DNA of 24,000 nucleotides from the NCBI RefSeq assembly GCF_001611275.1, contig NZ_CP015080.1, forward strand, positions 3,066,956 to 3,090,955, in the 5' to 3' direction. Below are positions 3,399-13,393 of this stretch, piece by piece. The stretch comes from Desulfuromonas sp. DDH964. GTDB taxonomy: Bacteria; Desulfobacterota; Desulfuromonadia; Desulfuromonadales; DDH964. Under the pieces are notes generated by a model. That model made no database searches. It worked only from the letters and a program-made list of their open reading frames with translations, and was not told the DNA's origin. A program made the translations under genes and the position numbers. The first letter of the stretch is position 1; each line of letters starts with the position of its first letter.

Positions 3399-5795
3399 TT
3401 ATGCGTTGATTTGCGAGTGTTCGGGAGAGTCCTCGCCGACACGGTTGCGGTAAGCGGCCATGAACCCGTCGCGCAGACGGTCCTCAAGCGACACCTTGCG
3501 GTCGTCCACATCGTGGGGCCGGACACCGGCGTCGCTGCGTAGCGGCGTTTCCGTCGATGCCTTGGCGGCGGGCTTGCCGCCCTGGTCGCTGTCGGCGGGT
3601 TTTTCTTCCTTGTCCTTGTCCGCCTTTGCCGATTTGGGCAGGCGCTCGTAAGCGGCCTCGGTGGCGGCGAAGGCTTCGTCGGACAGTTCGGCCAGGCGTT
3701 TCAGCTCGGCTTCCCGGTCCTCCTCGGACGCAAAGGAGAGCCCCTGTTTCTCCAGCCGGGTGAGCAGTTTCTTGGCGCGGGAGCGACAAGCGGCCGCCTT
3801 TTGTTCGGCTTCCAGTTCCTGGACGCGCTTCTGCAGCTCGGCGACCTGGGCCTTGAGCTGTCGGTTTTCCTTTTCCAGGTCGGAAACGCGAGCGGGATCG
3901 CCTTCCTGCTGGGCCGGTTTCTTCTTGGCCGCTTCGACGGCCGGGTCATCGGTGGGTTTGGTTTTGTCTTCCATCGTGGAATCTCCTTCGGGTTGGGATT
4001 GGTCGGGCTGGCTCTGAAGGGACGCCACCTGCAGAATCCTGGCGTTCTCGTCCGCGCCTTTGCGGTCGAGCAGTCCCAGTCCGGTGAAAGTGACGCCGTG
4101 CAGAATCTCGAAAACGGGTTGGCCGTTGAAATCACGGCCCTTGAATTTGCGCAGGTGGGTGCAGTAGTCGGCCTTGTTCTGGAAGCGCTTGTGGCAGATT
4201 GAGCACTCACCCTCCTGGTAGTCGCATTCCATGGAGACCTGGGAGATGATCCCGCGCTTCATCAGCTTGTAGGCCAGCCGGGCGGCCGGGGTGTCGTGGA
4301 CATACAGCTCGCCGACGCATTCCACGCGGCCGCCGTTGTCGTCCTCCAGGTAGTCGGCGGCGACGATGCCTCCCACGATGTCGTTGAACTCCTGCGAATG
4401 CTGCAGATCGACCTTCTTGTTCACGGCCGTCATGTGCCGACCGGACAACTCCTCGGCGGTGAAGTGGTCGCCGTTCTTGTTGGTCCCGGTGCGGCAGAGC
4501 ACGAAGCTGAACTGGGGGTCGCCCGCCGAGCCGACATCCATGGCCTCGGTCGCGAGACGTTCGCCTTCGCCCAGCCGGATATCCACGGGGATGCTGGTGT
4601 GGAAGTTCGCGGCGGCGGCCATCGGAGCGGGTTTCTCCTCCCGCTCGGCGCTGGCCTTGGCCCCGGGAGCGCAGACGAACAAACGCTCCTTGGCGTTGGA
4701 AGCCTCGCCGTGCTTGGAGGTGATGGCGTAGTGGTGATCCTTGGACTTCATCCGGCTCTGTTTGCCGAAGGAGCCAATGATCCGCTTCATCTCCTGCTCG
4801 TTGGGATAGGCGTGATCGCGGTAGGAGATCAGCCAGTGCGGGATGTGCTTGGCGTTGCCGAGAAAGGTCTGGAAGAACTCGCTGGCGTTGGCCTTGGTGA
4901 CGGTCTTGTGGTCGGTCTCGTAATACTTGACCTTGGTGTCGGCCTTGATTTCGAGCCCTTCCCAATAGGTCATGAGCCCCTCCACGAAGTGGTAGGCCCG
5001 CTCGTAGTTGGTGGTCGAAAACTCGGTGGCGTAGGGCGGATCGAAGTAGGCCAGATCCGCCTTGGCTTTCGGCAGCAGCTCGTTGATGTCCTGCCGGTAT
5101 GCCTTGTTCTCCTTGTCGTTGTCGAAAACCAGGGCGTTGATACGCTGCAGGTTCTTGCGCAAGCGATCCTTGAACTCGTCGGGGGTGTCCTGGCGGCGGC
5201 CATAATCGGTGGACGACGAGAAGTGGCCGAAGCCACCCTTGCCGCTCATGCAGGTTTTTCCGAGGCCGAACAGGGCGATGTCTTTCTTGAAGCCGGAGAG
5301 CTTGTCGCAGTTGGCGCGGATGGTGTCGATCAGCGCATGGACGCCCTTGGCGAAGAAAATGCCCTTGAAGTTGTCCTGAACGAAGCTGCCCGCCTTGGCG
5401 TTGTCGGCCAGGAGTGCCTCGATCTCGTCCTCGCTCAGGCGAACCGAGTTGTTCTCGATGATCGCCTTGGCGGCATGGTGGCAGTAGCGGAGCCGGTCGT
5501 TGGCGATGACCTGGAGGCCCTTGGTCTTGTACATGTAGGCCACGACCGCAGACCCCGAAAAGGCATCCAGCACCGTGCCAGTGCCTTCCGGGGTATGCTT
5601 CCAGATCCAGTCGACGAGCTTTTGCTTACTGCCGATGTAGTTGGTGATGTACTTGGGGCGCTTCTCGGGAGGGAGCTCTTCAGGAGCGGACTGTTCGGCG
5701 GCCTCGGACCCGAGCGTGTCGGGATCGAGAGTCAGCGCCGCATCGGCCTCCAGTAGAAACGCCAGCCTTTCCAGGTCTGTGGCGAACAGTTCCAT
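3399..5795 (-). CDS. Fusion protein: D12/Dam-like N6-adenine DNA methyltransferase + prohead-protease-like domain with zinc knuckle + scaffold-like coiled coil
   Basis: 799-aa track ORF, with TTG at 5798. The likely start is ATG 5795, preceded by GGAGAcgttg. In track numbering the methyltransferase motifs are YIGSK 54-58, FSGSA 80-84 and FDPPY 252-256. Residues ~425-590 read NKNGDHFTAEEL...VDLQHSQE...IISQVSMECDY, with ECSICH...YCTH as a CxxC...CxH knuckle. Residues 636-720 form a heptad-rich charged coiled coil (LEKENRQLKAQVAELQKRVQELEAEQKAA...). Confidence 0.85.
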   Translation of the reverse strand: MELFATDLERLAFLLEADAALTLDPDTLGSEAAEQSAPEELPPEKRPKYITNYIGSKQKLVDWIWKHTPEGTGTVLDAFSGSAVVAYMYKTKGLQVIANDRLRYCHHAAKAIIENNSVRLSEDEIEALLADNAKAGSFVQDNFKGIFFAKGVHALIDTIRANCDKLSGFKKDIALFGLGKTCMSGKGGFGHFSSSTDYGRRQDTPDEFKDRLRKNLQRINALVFDNDKENKAYRQDINELLPKAKADLAYFDPPYATEFSTTNYERAYHFVEGLMTYWEGLEIKADTKVKYYETDHKTVTKANASEFFQTFLGNAKHIPHWLISYRDHAYPNEQEMKRIIGSFGKQSRMKSKDHHYAITSKHGEASNAKERLFVCAPGAKASAEREEKPAPMAAAANFHTSIPVDIRLGEGERLATEAMDVGSAGDPQFSFVLCRTGTNKNGDHFTAEELSGRHMTAVNKKVDLQHSQEFNDIVGGIVAADYLEDDNGGRVECVGELYVHDTPAARLAYKLMKRGIISQVSMECDYQEGECSICHKRFQNKADYCTHLRKFKGRDFNGQPVFEILHGVTFTGLGLLDRKGADENARILQVASLQSQPDQSQPEGDSTMEDKTKPTDDPAVEAAKKKPAQQEGDPARVSDLEKENRQLKAQVAELQKRVQELEAEQKAAACRSRAKKLLTRLEKQGLSFASEEDREAELKRLAELSDEAFAATEAAYERLPKSAKADKDKEEKPADSDQGGKPAAKASTETPLRSDAGVRPHDVDDRKVSLEDRLRDGFMAAYRNRVGEDSPEHSQINA

Positions 5796-5912
5796 CAACG
5801 TCTCCGGTTGGTTTGCTGGGCTCTCCGCGATCTGCGGGGAGCGTTCAGCGGTTACTTACCGGAAGCGTTGGCGATGTGTCGGAGGGTGACGAAATGAGAA
5901 TTTTTTATTGAC

Positions 5913-6012
5913 AATGAACTACCCCGCAGCAAGCTACGGGGTATCAACAGCCTACACCCTTAGTAAAAATCGCGCAGCAAGCTGCGGGGAATTGAACCCA
6001 ACTTTTGATTAA
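5913..6012 (+). repeat. 100-bp element, copy 1; equals 1 nt plus a complete 32-codon mini-ORF (5914..6012)
   Basis: 100/100 identical to 9571..9670. The sequence aATGaactaccccgcagcaagctacggggtatcaacagcctacacccttagtaaaaatcgcgcagcaagctgcggggaattgaacccaacttttgatTAA translates to MNYPAASYGVSTAYTLSKNRAASCGELNPTFD. Two GC hairpins (ccccgcagc-aa-gctacgggg and cgcagc-aa-gctgcg) lie 48 nt (16 codons) apart. Confidence 0.9.
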
Positions 6013-6028
6013 CTAAAAGGAGAGGGAT

Positions 6029-6358
6029 ATGCCACTCATCAATTGCCCAGAATGCTCAACAGAAGTAAGCGATACTGCATTAAAGTGCCCTAAATGTGGG
6101 GTGCAATTGAGAAAACCTAAGCGCGGTTTTTTCGGAAAATTAGTCAAATGGAGCTTTGTCGGCTTCAATATCCTCATGGCAATATGGCTTATAGGCGGCA
6201 TGAACTCGGCTTCTGAAGGAATGCAGGCTCTTTCTGGTGCTGAGCAAGCTGGTGCCGCAATTGGAACCGGCATCGGTGCGATGTTGATTCTCGGCATCTG
6301 GGTGGTTGGAGATATTATCCTTGGCCTTTTTGTGCTCTTTACCCGGCCAAAAGCATAA
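6029..6358 (+). CDS. Zinc-ribbon domain membrane protein
   Basis: 109 aa, with RBS AAAAGGAGAGGG at 6015-6026. N-terminal CPEC-x13-CPKC zinc ribbon, followed by two hydrophobic helices (WSFVGFNILMAIWLIGG and IGAMLILGIWVVGDIILGLFVLF). AT-rich relative to the core genes. Confidence 0.8.
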   Translation: MPLINCPECSTEVSDTALKCPKCGVQLRKPKRGFFGKLVKWSFVGFNILMAIWLIGGMNSASEGMQALSGAEQAGAAIGTGIGAMLILGIWVVGDIILGLFVLFTRPKA

Positions 6359-6378
6359 AAGATCAATATCATATCCAC

Positions 6379-6425
6379 TAGCCCTGAATTACATCTCATC
6401 GCGATGTTGTTCAGGGCTTTTTACT
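6379..6425 (+). terminator. Rho-independent terminator
   Basis: Outer stem agccctgaa/ttcagggct with inner stem acatc/gatgt, followed by tttttactttt, 20 nt after the stop at 6358. Confidence 0.8.
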
Positions 6426-6441
6426 TTTGCGAGGTATTAGC

Positions 6442-6705
6442 ATGAAAAAGATATCACTGATTATCATAACTGTTTTGGCACTTTCTGGGTGCAAGGCTAC
6501 GGTAGAGACAGAAGTTAGTTTGAAGGACATTCTTGAATCAAAGACGAAAACTATTACCGGTGATCTTTTTGTGGAGGTTGCAGGTTGCAACGACTACAAA
6601 GATTCAAGACAACCATCATCCTCCCTTGTGAAGGTACAACAAACCATTCCGAGCATATTCCCAGATGCAAAATATGTTGAGTGTTTTAGGAAAGAGTTTG
6701 ACTCT
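6442..6705 (+). pseudogene. Lipoprotein gene, 5' fragment (88 codons), interrupted by an IS21-family element
   Basis: ATG 6442 follows GAGG at 6431-6434. The signal peptide carries a lipobox (MKKISLIIITVLALSGC). The reading frame continues exactly at 9379 once the IS and one copy of the ACTCT duplication are removed (2,673 bp = 891 codons). Confidence 0.85.
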
Positions 6706-6710
6706 TGCGT

Positions 6711-6848
6711 ATTCCGAGCCAAACTTTCCACCGATTCCGAGCCAAACTTTCCACCGATTCCGATGCAAACTTGCCACTGATTCCGATCCAAACTTGCCAG
6801 TCATTCCGACGCAAGGTTTCCACCCGTTCCGATCCAAACTTTCCAGTT
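6711..6848 (+). repeat. Six tandem ~23-bp subterminal repeats at the IS21 left end (presumed transposase-binding sites)
   Basis: Units are attccgagccaaactttccaccg (twice, identical), attccgatgcaaacttgccactg, attccgatccaaacttgccagtc, attccgacgcaaggtttccaccc and gttccgatccaaactttccagtt. Confidence 0.9.
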
Positions 6849-6972
6849 TGAGCGGAAGAGGTCGGTGAATCTGTCAGACTGATCAAAGTTCTCGCGACGC
6901 TGGGTAACCGCGGGGTACAACCTTCTGGACTTTTTCCAGGAGGTGGTCCCATTGGCACACACGAGGTTATCC

Positions 6973-8499
6973 ATGCGCAAGATCAAGGACGTTCTGCGTC
7001 TGCATTACGAAGCCGGCCTGACACAGCGGGCCATCGCCCGCTCCGTCGGCACGTCACACACCACGGTGGGCGAATTTCTGAGACGCGCCGCTCACGCCGG
7101 GTTGTCTTGGCCGCTGCCAGAGAATCTGGACGAAACCCGACTTGAACAGTTGCTCTTTCCGCCAGCGCCAGTCATTCCCGCCGACCAGCGCCCCATGCCC
7201 GACTGGGCGACCATCCATCAGGAACTCAAGCGCAAGGGCGTCACCCTGGGGCTGCTCTGGGAGGAATACCAGAACAGCCATCCCGAGGGGTATCGCTACA
7301 GCCGTTTCTGCGATCTGTACCGTGAGTGGTCCGGCAAACTGCGTCTGTCGATGCGTCAGGTGCACAAAGCCGGCGAGAAGCTGTTTGTCGACTACACCGG
7401 CCAGACCCTGCCGATCGTCGACCGCCGCACCGGCGAGATCCGCGAAGCGCAACTGTTCGTCGCGGCCCTGGGGGCGAGTTCCCAGACGTTTGCCGAAGCC
7501 ACCTGGACCCAAGGGCTGCCGGACTGGATCGGCTCGCATGTCCGGGCCTTCTCCTTCTACGGCGGAGTGCCCGAGATCGTTGTTCCGGACAACCTGAAAA
7601 GCGCCGTCTCCAAACCCTGCCGCTACGAACCGGACATCAACCCCACCTATGCGGAGCTGGCCGCTCACTATGGCTGCGCGGTGATTCCGGCGCGGGTGCG
7701 CAAACCCAAAGACAAGGCCAAGGTCGAGGCGGCGGTTCTGGTCGCCGAGCGCTTCATCCTGGCGCGGCTGCGCAACCGTACCTTCTTCAGTCTGGCCGAG
7801 GCCAACGCCGCCATTCGGGAGCTGGTGGAGCACCTCAACCGGCGCCCCTTCAAGAAGCTTCCCGGCTGCCGCCAGCAGCTCTTCGACACCCTGGAACGTC
7901 CGGCTCTGAATCCTCTGCCGGCGACCCCCTATACGTTCGCCGAATGGCGCCATGCGCGGGTCAACATCGATTACCATGCCGAAGTCGACCACCACTACTA
8001 CTCGGTCCCGTATGTGCTGGTGAAGCAGCAGCTCGACGTGCGCCTGACGGCGACCACCGTCGAATTTCTGCACAAAGGGCAACGGGTGGCCTCCCATGTC
8101 CGCTCCTCTGAGCGCGGTCGCCACACCACTCTCGGCGAGCACATGCCCAAAAGCCACAGGGAGTATGCCGAATGGACGCCGCAGCGCCTGGTTTCCTGGG
8201 CGGCCAAAACCGGACCGCACACCGCCGCCTTGGCAGAGAAGATCCTGGCCTCACGGGCCCATCCCCAGCAGGGCTACCGCAGCGTCCTGGGGCTGATCCG
8301 GCTGGCCAAGACCTACACGCCCGAGCGCCTGGAGGCGGCCTGCCAGCGGGCCCTGGCAACAAACGCCTGTCGCCTCAAGAGCGTCGCCTCGATCCTCAAA
8401 ACCGGACTGGACCGCCAGTCGCTCCCCGAGTCCACCGAGTCCCAACTCTCATTGCTGCCGAGTCACGACAACATCCGCGGCGCCGGCTACTACCACTGA
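6973..8499 (+). CDS. istA: IS21-family transposase IstA
   Basis: The track ORF 6943..8499 starts at a GTG. ATG 6973 (MRKIKDVLRLHYEAGLTQRAIARSVG...) has GAGG 6 nt upstream. It has an N-terminal HTH and a central DDE integrase-type region, and is followed by istB, the typical IS21 organisation. Confidence 0.9.
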   Translation: MRKIKDVLRLHYEAGLTQRAIARSVGTSHTTVGEFLRRAAHAGLSWPLPENLDETRLEQLLFPPAPVIPADQRPMPDWATIHQELKRKGVTLGLLWEEYQNSHPEGYRYSRFCDLYREWSGKLRLSMRQVHKAGEKLFVDYTGQTLPIVDRRTGEIREAQLFVAALGASSQTFAEATWTQGLPDWIGSHVRAFSFYGGVPEIVVPDNLKSAVSKPCRYEPDINPTYAELAAHYGCAVIPARVRKPKDKAKVEAAVLVAERFILARLRNRTFFSLAEANAAIRELVEHLNRRPFKKLPGCRQQLFDTLERPALNPLPATPYTFAEWRHARVNIDYHAEVDHHYYSVPYVLVKQQLDVRLTATTVEFLHKGQRVASHVRSSERGRHTTLGEHMPKSHREYAEWTPQRLVSWAAKTGPHTAALAEKILASRAHPQQGYRSVLGLIRLAKTYTPERLEAACQRALATNACRLKSVASILKTGLDRQSLPESTESQLSLLPSHDNIRGAGYYH

Positions 8500-8513
8500 C
8501 CAAGGAGACCACC

Positions 8514-9269
8514 ATGCTCAGCCACCCCACCGACGACAAACTGCGCGCCCTCAAGCTGACCGGCATGCTCAAGGCCCTTCAGGAACAGCGCCTTAGCGAG
8601 ACCGCCGATGCCTTGAGCTTCGAGGAGCGCCTCGGCCTGCTGGTCGACCGCGAGCAGACCGAGCGCGACAGCCGCCGGCTCACCACTCGCCTGCGCACGG
8701 CCCGGCTGCGTCAGAGCGCCTGCATCGAGGACCTCGACTGGAGGGCACCCCGGGGACTCGACCGCGACCTCGTGCTGGCGCTGGCCGGCGGTCGCTACCT
8801 CGCCAAGGGCCACAACATTCTCATCACCGGCCCCACCGGCGTCGGCAAGAGCTACCTCGCCTGCGCCTTGGCTCACAAGGCCTGCCGCCTCGGCTGCAAG
8901 ACCCTCTACCTGCGCCTGCCCCGCTTCCTGGAGGAACTGGCCCTCGCGCGGGCCGACGGCCGCTACCCCAAGATGATGGATAGAGTCGCCAAGACTCAAC
9001 TGCTCGTCCTCGACGATTGGGGGCTCGCCCCCATGACCGCCGCCGGTTGCCGCGATCTGCTCGAAATCCTCGAGGACCGCCACAATCTGCGTTCGACCCT
9101 GATCACCAGCCAGCTTCCGGTCGAAGCCTGGCACGACTACCTCGGGGATCCGACGGTCGCCGACGCCATCCTCGACCGCCTCATCCACAACGCCTACCGG
9201 CTCACCTTGAAAGGAGAATCGATGCGCAAACGGCGATCCCAGCTTGACCCGATCGGCAACTTGGCGTAA
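8514..9269 (+). CDS. istB: IS21-family helper ATPase IstB
   Basis: ATG 8514 follows AAGGAG at 8502-8507. Walker A is GPTGVGKS and Walker B is LLVLDDWG. The longer track ORF from 8172 is an upstream-extended shadow. Confidence 0.92.
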   Translation: MLSHPTDDKLRALKLTGMLKALQEQRLSETADALSFEERLGLLVDREQTERDSRRLTTRLRTARLRQSACIEDLDWRAPRGLDRDLVLALAGGRYLAKGHNILITGPTGVGKSYLACALAHKACRLGCKTLYLRLPRFLEELALARADGRYPKMMDRVAKTQLLVLDDWGLAPMTAAGCRDLLEILEDRHNLRSTLITSQLPVEAWHDYLGDPTVADAILDRLIHNAYRLTLKGESMRKRRSQLDPIGNLA

Positions 9270-9300
9270 GACAAAAACTCCAGCGTCGCTACGCTCCGAT

Positions 9301-9368
9301 CACTGGCAACTTTGCCTTGGAACGAGTGGCAACTTTGCGCTGGAACGGCTGGCAACTTTCATCGGAAT
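9301..9368 (+). repeat. Three subterminal ~23-bp repeats at the IS21 right end (inverted relative to the left-end repeats)
   Basis: Units are cactggcaactttgccttggaac, gagtggcaactttgcgctggaac and ggctggcaactttcatcggaat. Their reverse complements match the attccga...aa(a/c)tt(t/g)cca pattern of the left end. Confidence 0.9.
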
Positions 9369-9378
9369 CCGCAACTCT

Positions 9379-9573
9379 TATGCGCGCTTTACTATCCCGG
9401 TGTTTTTAGACAAGGACAAGGACGGAAAACTAGCATCAGAATCACACCTGAATATCATTTCTAACGCAGATTCTCTCTTGATGGTTGGCATTCCTCAGAA
9501 CATTAAGGCGAACATGGAGCGTGTGAAAAATAATAGCTTCGGAACTAGCGCATTTGATTTAAAGGTAAATAAT
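9379..9573 (+). pseudogene. Lipoprotein gene, middle fragment (YARFTIPVFLDKDKDGKL...SAFDLKVNN)
   Basis: Same frame as 6442..6705 after IS excision. The track ORF 9244..9621 is a chimera of the IS21 end, this fragment and read-through into the 100-bp element. Confidence 0.75.
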
Positions 9574-9670
9574 GAACTACCCCGCAGCAAGCTACGGGGT
9601 ATCAACAGCCTACACCCTTAGTAAAAATCGCGCAGCAAGCTGCGGGGAATTGAACCCAACTTTTGATTAA
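9571..9670 (+). repeat. 100-bp element, copy 2 (mini-ORF 9572..9670)
   Basis: Identical to 5913..6012. It lies inside or at the end of the lipoprotein reading frame. AAAGG sits 7-11 nt upstream of its ATG. Confidence 0.9.
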
Positions 9671-9851
9671 AGTAAACAACGATACGGGAAAAGAATTTCC
9701 ATTCAAAGTAATTGCTGCCTATGTTGAAAATCAGCCATACGTTTATGGCGACCTAACATCTAAAGGAAATGGATCTTTCACTGTAACGTTATCTGATGTT
9801 TCGGTCAGCAGTGCATTAGAGAATGGCACAGCTATGGTTTTAATCCGATAA
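9663..9851 (+). CDS. Small ORF (62 aa, TTG start). Either an independent gene or the 3' fragment of the disrupted lipoprotein gene
   Basis: MIKVNNDTGKEFPFKVIAAYVENQPYVYGDLTSKGNGSFTVTLSDVSVSSALENGTAMVLIR. There is no RBS, and the start lies inside the 100-bp element. Its opening IKVNN echoes DLKVNN just before the element. Confidence 0.4.
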   Translation: MIKVNNDTGKEFPFKVIAAYVENQPYVYGDLTSKGNGSFTVTLSDVSVSSALENGTAMVLIR

Positions 9852-9870
9852 TTTATACCAAGGTGGCGAC

Positions 9871-10113
9871 ATGTTTTTAACAATAAACATAACTGATGTT
9901 GAAGACGCGCTAACTCTCAAGAACGGACAATTCATTGAGGCAGTGTTTACTCATGCGTTAGAAATCGTAAATGCTGGTGGCCGCATCATCATTCAGAGGG
10001 AATACATCAATGCACCTCCAACCCTTCTTGATACCTTCACGACCCAGGCGGATTTGGATGGCTGGAAATCGAGAATTGACGATATTCTTTCATGCCTGGA
10101 TGAACAGCAATGA
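9871..10113 (+). CDS. Hypothetical protein (80 aa)
   Basis: ATG follows AAGGTGG. The stop overlaps the next start (ATGA at 10110-10113). I recognise no motif. Confidence 0.6.
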   Translation: MFLTINITDVEDALTLKNGQFIEAVFTHALEIVNAGGRIIIQREYINAPPTLLDTFTTQADLDGWKSRIDDILSCLDEQQ

Positions 10114-10472
10114 TCGAAATCGGGTTTGTCAATGATTGTATTTCGGAGCTGCAATCCTGCCTGGATCAAGGACCTATCGTTTTTTATCAGGGGAAGGAGC
10201 TTCGCAGCCTCAATGAAGAGGTAGTCGGCCGCATCGGCGGGTTGAGAGTGACCATACGCGCCGACGAACACCCCCCACCCCATTTTCATGTCGAGTATAA
10301 CGGCGAAAACAATAGCTTCAGCATCGAAGATGGGGCACCTCTTTATCCAAGCAACGGACTGAAACAGTATTTCCGAAACATCAACAAGTGGCACTCTAAT
10401 AACCGTGCCACCTTGGTTGCTACTTGGAATCGAATGCGGCCGCACAACTGTCCGGTCGGCCCAATCCAGTAG
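10110..10472 (+). CDS. DUF4160 domain protein
   Basis: ADEHPPPHFHVEYNGENNSFSIEDG...NKWHSNNRATLVATWNR matches the E-x-x-PPHFHV...W...L...W signature of DUF4160. It carries ~35 extra N-terminal residues compared with typical members. Confidence 0.7.
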   Translation: MIEIGFVNDCISELQSCLDQGPIVFYQGKELRSLNEEVVGRIGGLRVTIRADEHPPPHFHVEYNGENNSFSIEDGAPLYPSNGLKQYFRNINKWHSNNRATLVATWNRMRPHNCPVGPIQ

Positions 10473-11692: not shown

Positions 11693-13393
11693 CCTGAATC
11701 AGTGAGCTTACAATCGTAATTTCTTGTTTTATCTTTGACAATTAGCTGATTTTGTTGATCTTTTCTGCTATTATAGAGCCGCCTCAAACTTCACCCAAGG
11801 AGATTTTTTCGTGACGTTTCCGCGGTTCAACATCGAGCAGTCCGACAGCGAATTCTACACCTCCCAGTCCGGCGTGGCCCTGGTCGGCCTGGCGGTCAAC
11901 AGGTTCACGTCGTTAAACTCGCGGGTCAACAAGGCGGCGCCCTGCAAGGGCGTTGCCACGGCCGATGTGCTGCGTTGCTATCTCGGCCTGCTCTGCCAGG
12001 GCAAGAGCGACTTCGAGGCGATCCGGCCTTTTTTCGAGGATGACGAGTTTTTCGCTGCGGCCCTCGGCGTCAACAAGGTCCCGTCACCGGAGACCCTGCG
12101 TCAGCGAATGGATGCCGTCGCCGAGGCGACGATGCGCATTGTCGACTTCTGTACGGTTGAGTTTCTCAAAAAAGCCAAGGCCGAGTTCTCGACGCTTGAG
12201 ACCGGGCACATGCCGCTGGATTTGGACGTCTTCACCCAGGACAACTCCAACACCAAGAAAGAGGGGGCCTCCTGGACCTACCGCAAGTTCCACGGCTTCG
12301 CCCCGATCGCCGCCTGGCTGGGCTTGGAGGGGTGGTGTCTGGAGATCGAGCACCGTCCCGGGTCCCAGCATGCCCAGGAGGGCTTTGTCCCCTTTTTGCT
12401 GCGGGCGATTCACAAAAGCCGGCAGTTGACCGAAGCTCCCCTGCTGGTGCGACTGGACAGCGCCCACGATGCCATTGCGACTCTGGTGGCTCTCAAGGAA
12501 GAGAAGGTCGACTTCATCGTCAAGTGGAATCCCCGAGGGACCGACGTGCCGGCCAGAGCCAGCGAGGTCTTTGCCCACGGCAAGATGATCAAGCAGGATA
12601 AGACCGGCCGCATCGCCATCATGACGGAAACGGTCGAGCGCGCCTTCAAGGATGAGGATGACAAGTACCAGACTCTCAAGGTCCGCCGTGTGCTGCGGGC
12701 CACGGAACGCTATTTCGAAAAAGACGGCACCCCGCTGCTGGTCCCGGACATTGAAATCGAGGGCTGGTGGACCAGCCTCTCAAGCGCCAAGGACAAGGTG
12801 ATCGAACTGTACAAGGGACACGCCCTGTGCGAGCAGTATCACTCCGAGCTTAAAAGCGATATGGATCTGGAACGTCTGCCGTCAGGCAAGTTCGCCACCA
12901 ACACCCTGGTCATGCACTGTGCCGGGCTGGCCTACAACATTCTGCGGGCTGTGGGCCAGGTCGGCCTGATGACCGGCAAGCAGCGTCGGCGGGCCAAACA
13001 ACGCCGCCGGCTCAAGACGGTGATTCAGGACCTGGTCTACTTCGCCGGGCGCTTCATCCGCCACGCGCACGCCCTGACGTTGCGCTTCAGTCGGCATGCG
13101 CATGATCAGTATGACGCCTTCAGCAGAACCTACCGACGGTTCGCTTATGGCTGACCGGAACCGAGACAATCAGGGCACGGAACAACCCCACCATCAGGTT
13201 GGGGTCGCCATCGCTCGCCCTGAAACAGACACAGAGAGGCCGCACCATGTAAAAATCAGCTGAATTGTCAAAGAACAGCTCCGTCAACCTGAAAAAACAA
13301 TCCGGACGGACGGTGTGACACTCAATAAGGCTCGCGAAAAAGGCCTCGCGAGACAAAAACCAGAGGTACGAACTGCTACATCACTGATTCAGG
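11693..13393 (+). mobile_element. IS1380-family-like insertion sequence, copy B (1,701 bp)
   Basis: Same length and IRs as copy A (cctgaatcagtga... and ...tcactgattcagg). No target duplication (flanks ttctt and attca). Confidence 0.85.
11811..13154 (+). CDS. DDE transposase, IS4 superfamily / IS1380-like (copy B)
   Basis: 447 aa, differing from copy A at only 4 residues (A37S, A40N, I47V, C421R). Confidence 0.9.
   Translation: MTFPRFNIEQSDSEFYTSQSGVALVGLAVNRFTSLNSRVNKAAPCKGVATADVLRCYLGLLCQGKSDFEAIRPFFEDDEFFAAALGVNKVPSPETLRQRMDAVAEATMRIVDFCTVEFLKKAKAEFSTLETGHMPLDLDVFTQDNSNTKKEGASWTYRKFHGFAPIAAWLGLEGWCLEIEHRPGSQHAQEGFVPFLLRAIHKSRQLTEAPLLVRLDSAHDAIATLVALKEEKVDFIVKWNPRGTDVPARASEVFAHGKMIKQDKTGRIAIMTETVERAFKDEDDKYQTLKVRRVLRATERYFEKDGTPLLVPDIEIEGWWTSLSSAKDKVIELYKGHALCEQYHSELKSDMDLERLPSGKFATNTLVMHCAGLAYNILRAVGQVGLMTGKQRRRAKQRRRLKTVIQDLVYFAGRFIRHAHALTLRFSRHAHDQYDAFSRTYRRFAYG

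Follow-up and report, generated by a model that had tools for sequence, protein, structure and literature searches.

The 24,000-nt stretch of Desulfuromonas sp. DDH964 DNA analysed here (contig NZ_CP015080.1; hereafter the window) contains a perfectly duplicated sequence at 5913-6012 and 9571-9670. Each copy is very probably a 95-nt non-autonomous element of the IS200/IS605 family of insertion sequences (IS), that is, a palindrome-associated transposable element (PATE) or miniature inverted-repeat transposable element (MITE) from which the transposase gene, tnpA, has been deleted. The assignment to an IS200-type element that has lost its transposase gene is made because the two ends align to the left (LE) and right (RE) ends of full-length IS copies, and because a relic ribosome-binding site has been kept. 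The active strand of the transposon is the minus strand of the window. Five features of IS200/IS605-derived PATEs were looked for and all were found, namely subterminal palindromes, insertion 3′ of a pentamer without duplication, ends homologous to those of a Y1 transposase IS, pairing between guide and target (on statistical grounds) and a lack of coding capacity. The element is an ordinary selfish element with no coding capacity of its own.

Direct comparison of the two stretches gave 100/100 identity with unrelated flanks, as had been reported in the original prediction, and this is the sole repeat of its kind in the window. A window scan with the core CGCAGCAAGCTRCGGGG returned six matches at three or fewer mismatches (0.29 expected), all of which lie within the two copies. 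The ATG at 5914-5916 and the in-frame TAA at 6010-6012, which delimit a 32-codon frame, are likewise present, as are two related GC hairpins 48 nt apart, their cores starting at 5925 and 5973 in copy 1. The inserted unit is however 5 nt shorter than the identical stretch, at 95 nt (5913-6007 and 9571-9665). The identity runs over 100 nt because the 95-nt element is followed by 5 nt of pre-existing target, ATTAA, at 6008-6012 and 9666-9670. The junction is ambiguous by 1 nt; the ambiguous base was given to the element because an A precedes ATGAAC in 112 of the 120 listed matches to the family (see below), and because five full-length copies end in GTTCATT.

The zinc-ribbon protein encoded beside copy 1 was found, residue-identical, on 23 metagenomic contigs, several of them from anaerobic-digester or biogas samples. 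Ten of these contigs (L124-L133), which are 93-99% identical to the window over the region, were compared with it. Both copies of the element are missing from all ten, and all ten carry an intact 213-aa DUF7424 gene, the gene that contains copy 2 in the window. At the site of copy 2 the relatives read ...gatttaaaggtaaatATTAAagt..., with ggtaaat|ATTAAagt in all those examined (six junctions displayed), so that the empty site is ggtaaatATTAAagt. The window contains exactly 95 extra bases between ggtaaat and ATTAA; the insertion lies 3′ of the minus-strand TTAAT (9666-9670) and the target is not duplicated. The target of copy 1, ATTAA (6008-6012), is present in L132 as ccATTAActaaaagg, without the element. 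Both insertions appear recent because the copies are identical and absent from the ten relatives; judged from these alignments, they are recent relative to the 1-6% divergence among the prophage relatives, and the 100% identity of the copies together with their absence from the ten closest relatives suggests recent mobility. The original view of the repeat as a discrete mobile element is borne out by these empty sites and by a family of like elements.

That family was recovered by a species scan, in which one genome per species was searched with the query ATGAACNACCCCGCNGCAAGC, a pattern that leaves the LE hairpin unconstrained, yielding at least 120 stretches. The RE motif occurs in at least 120 species from Desulfobacterota and other ‘delta’ lineages, Cyanobacteria, Bacteroidales, Nitrospinota, Lachnospiraceae, Xenorhabdus and at least one archaeal metagenome-assembled genome. 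Among the matches listed, 124 occurrences (copy 1 of the window included) were sorted by form: there are 47 short elements with two hairpins (about 85-105 nt), 11 ‘solo’ forms with one hairpin, 10 with longer inserts, 19 broken off by the end of the available sequence and 37 without an LE motif within 400 nt, some of the latter being full-length IS copies. Of the listed family matches that were parsed, 88 have TATC after hairpin 1. In 25 of the 120 listed matches the RE motif lies no more than 160 nt from the end of the locus sequence, and several of these are true contig ends (L010, L011, L039, L069), as expected of multi-copy repeats. In cyanobacterial and some other loci, hairpin 1 is followed by the 3′ end of a gene on the opposite strand. 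A BLAST search of plasmids and phages with the 100-mer returned only 35-nt RE matches, in Xenorhabdus and cyanobacterial plasmids. The Xenorhabdus plasmid loci contain a 100-nt element of like build, which runs ATGAAC.A, hairpin, TATCA, variable stretch, hairpin, GGGAAT..ACCC...GATTTAAT.

Five full-length IS copies (L051, L099, L110, L106 and L002) are 527-542 nt long and contain tnpA only. They are organised as target pentamer | LE hairpin, ribosome-binding site, 147-aa open reading frame (ORF), RE hairpin and GTAGTTCATT, the LE accounting for about 45 nt and the RE for about 40 nt, and the window element aligns to the LE and RE sequences of these copies. The 147-aa ORF matches Pfam Y1_Tnp (PF01797, E = 2.4e-39), identifying it as a Y1 HUH transposase, and scores 136.7 bits against the NCBIfam IS200/IS605 transposase equivalog NF033573, for which the cutoff is 55. 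Elainella saxicola contains both a full copy (L051) and, on a second contig, a truncated right end (L056). IS200-group elements are usually quoted at 0.6-0.75 kb, which is longer than these 527-542 nt relatives.

The family also varies in form. The solo forms are about 46-50 nt long (L014, L020, L088, L104, L018, L100 and others) and have a single hybrid hairpin. The LE guide and target pentamer flank it on one side, and on its other side lies the RE cleavage motif, an arrangement that recombination between the LE and RE hairpins could have produced. Six loci (L011, L013, L031, L068, L078, L109) have another outer left end, GGGGTATTAAACCC..GCTACGCAATAAA instead of GGGGAAT..ACCC..AGATTAAA, and this sub-family probably has a different target motif. 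In five others (L016, L017, L036, L091, L096) the end hairpins are separated by 80-150 nt of unrelated, often palindromic, passenger sequence.

Read on the minus strand, the order of parts is target pentamer (TAM) TTAAT, LE guide, LE hairpin, relic spacer, RE guide, RE hairpin and right-end cleavage motif (TEM) TCATT. Copy 1 (5913-6007, minus strand) runs CAAAAGTTGGG...GGGGTAGTTCATT, its bounds being set by the empty sites and by the ends of the full-length IS. Its TAM, on the minus strand at 6008-6012, reads TTAAT (ATTAA on the plus strand) and contains the supposed TAA stop. The putative LE DNA guide, TCAA (5992-5995), occupies positions -6 to -3 before CCCC and pairs with TTAA of the target. 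It is followed by the LE subterminal hairpin (5973-5986), CGCAGC-TT-GCTGCG and then ATTTTTAC. Past the LE hairpin lie the relic ribosome-binding site AAGGG and a GTG where the tnpA start codon would be, and the alignment to full-length copies reveals that the element also keeps the last bases of the tnpA 3′ region before the RE hairpin. A candidate RE DNA guide, TTGA (5944-5947), again at -6 to -3 before CCCC and complementary to TCA of the TEM, was assigned by analogy with the LE guide rule. The RE subterminal hairpin (5922-5941), CCCCGTAGC-TT-GCTGCGGGG, has nine pairs including one T.G wobble. The TEM itself, TCATT at 5913-5917, contains the supposed ATG, and ...GGGGTAGTTCATT closes all five full-length IS copies examined. 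Copy 2 (9571-9665, minus strand) is identical, with its RE hairpin at 9580-9599 and its LE hairpin at 9631-9644. The two hairpins have the same orientation and are direct repeats of each other; they are subterminal and there are no terminal inverted repeats. The terminator-like hairpin and T-run that had been noted on the opposite strand are real, and in fact both hairpins fit a simple terminator pattern on the minus strand, giving two terminator-like sites. The fold z-score of the element is about -3.

Covariation across the family, which had been suggested as a check on the hairpins, is found in both stems. In 42 distinct family sequences, 97.2% of the cells of the LE stem pair; changes on both sides are seen in 48 cells, compared to 13.1 in shuffles, none of 500 shuffles is as high, and all slid controls collapse. 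In the RE stem, the variable position (pair 7) shows all four Watson-Crick combinations. The mismatches are also strand-biased. Those of the LE stem are G.T on the minus strand (8 vs 2), and at RE pair 7 about 24 are of this type (C.A when read on the plus strand) vs at most one, a bias that fits folding of the transposon strand. Moreover, the target varies together with the guide. Taking all ends alike irrespective of relatedness, target position 1 and LE guide position -3 form a Watson-Crick pair in 42 of 48 ends (shuffled mean 32.5, reached by 1 of 2000 shuffles), and target position 2 and guide position -4 do so in 34 of 48 (shuffled mean 21.4, reached by 0 of 2000). Examples include CTAAT with TTAG, TGAAT with TTCA, TCAAT with TTGA and TAAAT with ..TA.

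A mechanism can be proposed by analogy with known members of the IS200/IS605 family. TnpA would bind both hairpins on single-stranded DNA and cut 3′ of the target TTAAT and 3′ of TCATT, and the released single-stranded circle would be re-inserted 3′ of another TTAAT-like pentamer, leaving the target unduplicated. The LE guide would recognise the target, whilst the RE guide and hairpin would act with the cleavage motif TCATT. The chemistry of these steps (TnpA dimer, single-stranded DNA, circle, re-insertion) is taken over from family membership. The Y1 HUH TnpA is assumed to act in trans, from a full-length copy located elsewhere in the genome, and the flanks of such a partner IS200-type tnpA would be expected to read ...TTCCCCGCAGCTTGCTGCG... 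and ...CCCCGTAGCTTGCTGCGGGGTAGTTCATT. We infer both the current mobility of the element and this source of TnpA.

Several observations weigh against the identification of the repeat as a trans-mobilised IS200 derivative. There is no tnpA in the 24-kb window, hence the assumption of a trans-acting transposase, and no more than two copies are seen. For copy 1 a simple empty site is lacking, as its RE side adjoins a deletion. The subfamily-specific middle part matched only two further JGI metagenome contigs, L134 and L135, and was not found in viral contigs; L134, the one of the two that was read, is a diverged relative whose RE stem carries a compensatory CCTCG/CGAGG change. The target-guide rule has exceptions, and the pairing statistics ignore the relatedness of the members. 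Finally, the minimum-free-energy fold of the 100-mer favours a long-range stem between LE and RE over the local hairpins, a preference that arises because the two hairpins are alike. The local hairpins are thus supported by family covariation, rather than by the fold of the 100-mer.

The original prediction had read the repeat as a mobile mini-gene of 32 codons, encoding MNYPAASYGVSTAYTLSKNRAASCGELNPTFD. Mobility held up; the mini-gene did not, and we regard it as extremely improbable. The ATG, the in-frame TAA and an internal repeat in the peptide are all present, and the coincidence of the repeat ends with a start and a stop had been taken as a sign of coding. However, the TAA sits in the target ATTAA, which is seen in the relatives with empty sites, and the ATG falls within the cleavage motif, since TCATT on the transposon strand is AATGA on the plus strand of the window. 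Among the 47 two-hairpin elements, the first in-frame stop lies in the target pentamer in only 7, and the ORFs are between 7 and 97 codons long. The distance between the hairpins, a multiple of three, had been offered as a further coding sign, but in the same elements hairpin 2, counted from the ATG, is spread 17/14/16 over the three frames, and therefore the 48-nt, 16-codon spacing is coincidental. Nor do the copies keep frame in the way that coding copies should, as family members (e.g. the Chroococcidiopsis copy) have frame-shifting indels in the loop with the stem retained. The peptide has no match to any NCBIfam family, and the strand that would encode it is antisense to tnpA in the full-length relatives. 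A small protein gene with a conserved frame was therefore rejected for the family on stop position, indels and phase. The fallback that had been named, a local segmental duplication, is even harder to credit, whether as a duplicated or gene-converted 100-bp piece or as an integron attC site, and we give it practically no weight. Identical copies 3.6 kb apart with small cassette-like genes around them are what such an origin could leave, but the same family with the same boundaries is found in at least 120 unrelated genomes and the empty site shows a precise insertion. An attC site is further opposed by the absence of R''/L''...L'/R' inverted symmetry and of a GTTRRRY core, the hairpins being direct repeats, by ends (AATGAAC... 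and ...CTTTTG) that are not inverse complements, and by a plain terminator between the zinc-ribbon and lipoprotein genes. No integron integrase was seen nearby in a partial survey comprising the ORF listing of the window and a Pfam scan of only 10 ORFs.

Two other explanations were weighed. The first is a repeat of the repetitive extragenic palindrome (REP) or bacterial interspersed mosaic element (BIME) type, not derived from an IS but kept by a REP-associated tyrosine transposase (RAYT) that has been domesticated. Such enzymes are relatives of TnpA, of the Y1 HUH type, and act on short hairpin repeats, and the TnpA of the full-length relatives gives a weak match to the RAYT model REP_Tyr_transpos. 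At 37.7 bits this match is below the cutoff of 80, whereas the IS200 equivalog is exceeded by a wide margin (136.7 vs 55). The full-length relatives have the build of a compact IS, LE and RE being distinct, and Elainella saxicola has a full and a truncated copy. One insertion lies within a coding gene and the element has a defined target-guide logic. REPs are usually species-specific, but this family spans many phyla. A REP/RAYT system is accordingly very improbable here. The second explanation, which is compatible with a transposon origin, is that the element has been co-opted as a regulatory nucleic acid (a minus-strand terminator, an insulator or a small RNA). It has a little more in its favour, in that the element contains the two minus-strand terminator-like sites and has a fold z-score of about -3. 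IS200 left-end hairpins are reported to terminate incoming transcription, and in the full-length copies the LE hairpin and an A/T-rich tract lie just upstream of the tnpA ribosome-binding site. We nevertheless consider co-option unlikely. The insertions are absent from ten relatives and so are too recent for a conserved host function, the gene around copy 2 is broken, whether it was so beforehand or not, and the DNA-level needs of transposition explain the conservation of the family. Rfam models matched nowhere in the window at their gathering thresholds, and a permissive search of 5860-6060 gave only chance-level hits (best 16.3 bits vs a gathering threshold of 49.5). A side effect of the element on host transcription is possible. 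The recombination site or nucleic-acid-level role that had been put forward as an alternative to the mini-gene comes close to the truth, since the functional parts are the hairpins. A tRNA or T-arm-like reading of the minus-strand GGGTTCAATTCCC was also tried and rejected; ARAGORN was negative and the loop is not conserved (TTATATT in Xenorhabdus).

Both copies of the IS200 derivative are inserted into a Mu-like prophage region. As had been stated, copy 1 lies just upstream of the gene for the zinc-ribbon membrane protein (6029-6358, plus strand; Pfam Zn_Ribbon_1), which adjoins the LE/TAM junction, and copy 2 lies within the lipoprotein reading frame. The regions 6000-6900 and 9300-10200 are low in G+C, the window being otherwise about 60-65% G+C; an 80-aa ORF and a DUF4160 gene are also found in the low-G+C region. 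The lipoprotein gene (6442-9851, plus strand) is now in three pieces, 6442-6705, 9379-9570 and 9666-9851, and the rejoined product matches PF24199 (DUF7424) with E = 2.5e-39. It is split at about codon 87 by an IS21-family element and after about codon 152 by copy 2. The likeness between the flank upstream of copy 2 (KVN) and the one downstream (KVNN), with third-codon differences, suggested a diversity-generating retroelement or allele shuffling. This candidate was rejected, because the lipoprotein has an internal repeat of its own, ...DLKVNIKVNNDTG... in the relatives, which accounts for the likeness.

Next to copy 1, 1,002 nt of the relatives are missing (L125 1106-2107; L132 151-1152; window 5908-5913 / 6008), and the L124 version of this segment is 970 nt. 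The segment holds an HTH_17 gene and a gene for a 234-aa zinc-ribbon protein. Its loss also takes the -10 box of a promoter-like site (TTGACA-18-TATGCT) that is seen in the relatives, leaving the TTGACA at 5908-5913. On the transposon strand the missing segment spans from just after TTAAT| to just after gggTTTAT|, and the LE guide TCAA fits TTTAT no less well than TTAAT. Most simply, the element would have been inserted a second time, at TTTAT, and the two 95-nt direct repeats would then have recombined; an adjacent deletion mediated by the transposase would be another account. On a more speculative note, and one that we would rate as improbable if only somewhat less so than co-option for regulation, the TNAAT/TCATT end family may represent an unusually widespread and compact IS200 lineage, of which the 95-nt and ~46-nt derivatives are near-minimal substrates and in which the 1-kb loss was mediated by TnpA.

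The IS21-family element within the lipoprotein gene occupies 6706-9373 (istA 6943-8499, istB about 8514-9269). It begins with TGCG[T/G]ATTCCGA... at 6706, ends with ...CA at 9373 and is accompanied by a duplication of 5-6 bp, ACTCT(T). Five tandem repeats of 23 nt occupy 6711-6848 at its left end and have a mirrored counterpart at the right end (9299-9359). An IS4-like element with a 447-aa DDE_Tnp_1_4 transposase is present in two copies, at 1279-2845 and 11693-13259 (at least), which are 98-100% identical. These lie 10,414 nt apart in direct orientation and enclose the prophage segment with both PATE copies, an arrangement like that of a composite transposon. Just upstream of the first IS4-like copy, at 572-1238, is a tandem repeat of a 226-nt unit, comprising two copies that are 99% identical and a third that is partial and diverged. 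On the minus strand, 3399-5798 is a single 799-aa ORF with a D12 N6-adenine methyltransferase domain, a weak match to a prohead protease and a coiled coil. L126 has two genes (274 aa and 522 aa) in its place, and the difference may reflect a fusion, a frameshift or the assembly.

Recognition of the element keeps both the 32-codon ‘gene’ and the truncated lipoprotein from being annotated as real features. The locus can then be read as a decaying Mu-like prophage into which mobile elements of at least three kinds have been inserted. Elements of this kind are already well known, as is their mechanism, and they open no new question. The points of added note are how widespread and compact the family is and how cleanly it demonstrates the target-guide rule in nature. 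The locus offers a clean natural case of the peel-and-paste logic, in that an empty site is seen, the TTAAT target is not duplicated and guide and target covary, and the consensus could serve to annotate this widespread end family in metagenomes.

PATEs are known as non-autonomous IS200/IS605 derivatives from Haloquadratum (PMC3119063), Halanaerobium (PMC7290912) and Geobacillus stearothermophilus (PMC10055086). Like these, the window element is gene-less, retains only the LE and RE subterminal hairpins and is presumably mobilised in trans by TnpA; it is inserted 3′ of a specific pentamer with no target duplication, and its target would be read by an internal DNA guide. At 95 nt it is far shorter than the PATE-like element of PMC7290912 (about 271 nt), and it comes from an IS200-type parent with tnpA only, having no relic of tnpB or of an omega-RNA. 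A search of the available literature by sequence string did not find its end family (TAM TNAAT, TEM TCATT, RE ...CCCCGC.GCTTGC.GCGGGGTAGTTCATT). In comparison with REP/BIME and RAYT systems, the element shares short GC-rich hairpin repeats and a Y1 HUH enzyme. It differs from them in that its partner scores as an IS200 transposase, and in its two distinct ends, defined target and intragenic sites. There are also parallels with IS608, ISDra2 and ISGst, the characterised IS200/IS605 members, which move by ‘peel and paste’ single-strand transposition and likewise do not duplicate their target. The same parts are found in all (TAM, LE guide and hairpin, RE guide and hairpin, TEM), with the two hairpins alike and in the same orientation. 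The ISGst pentamers TTCAT, TTTAT and TTCAC (PMC10055086) are of the same style as the TAM and TEM of the element. Unlike IS608, ISDra2 and ISGst, the family described here has other hairpin and TAM/TEM sequences, and its full-length relatives are 527-542 nt long with tnpA alone. The DNA-guide logic has been established for IS608 and ISGst (PMC10055086, PMC7290912), and the target-guide rule of the present element is that same logic, here read from sequence.

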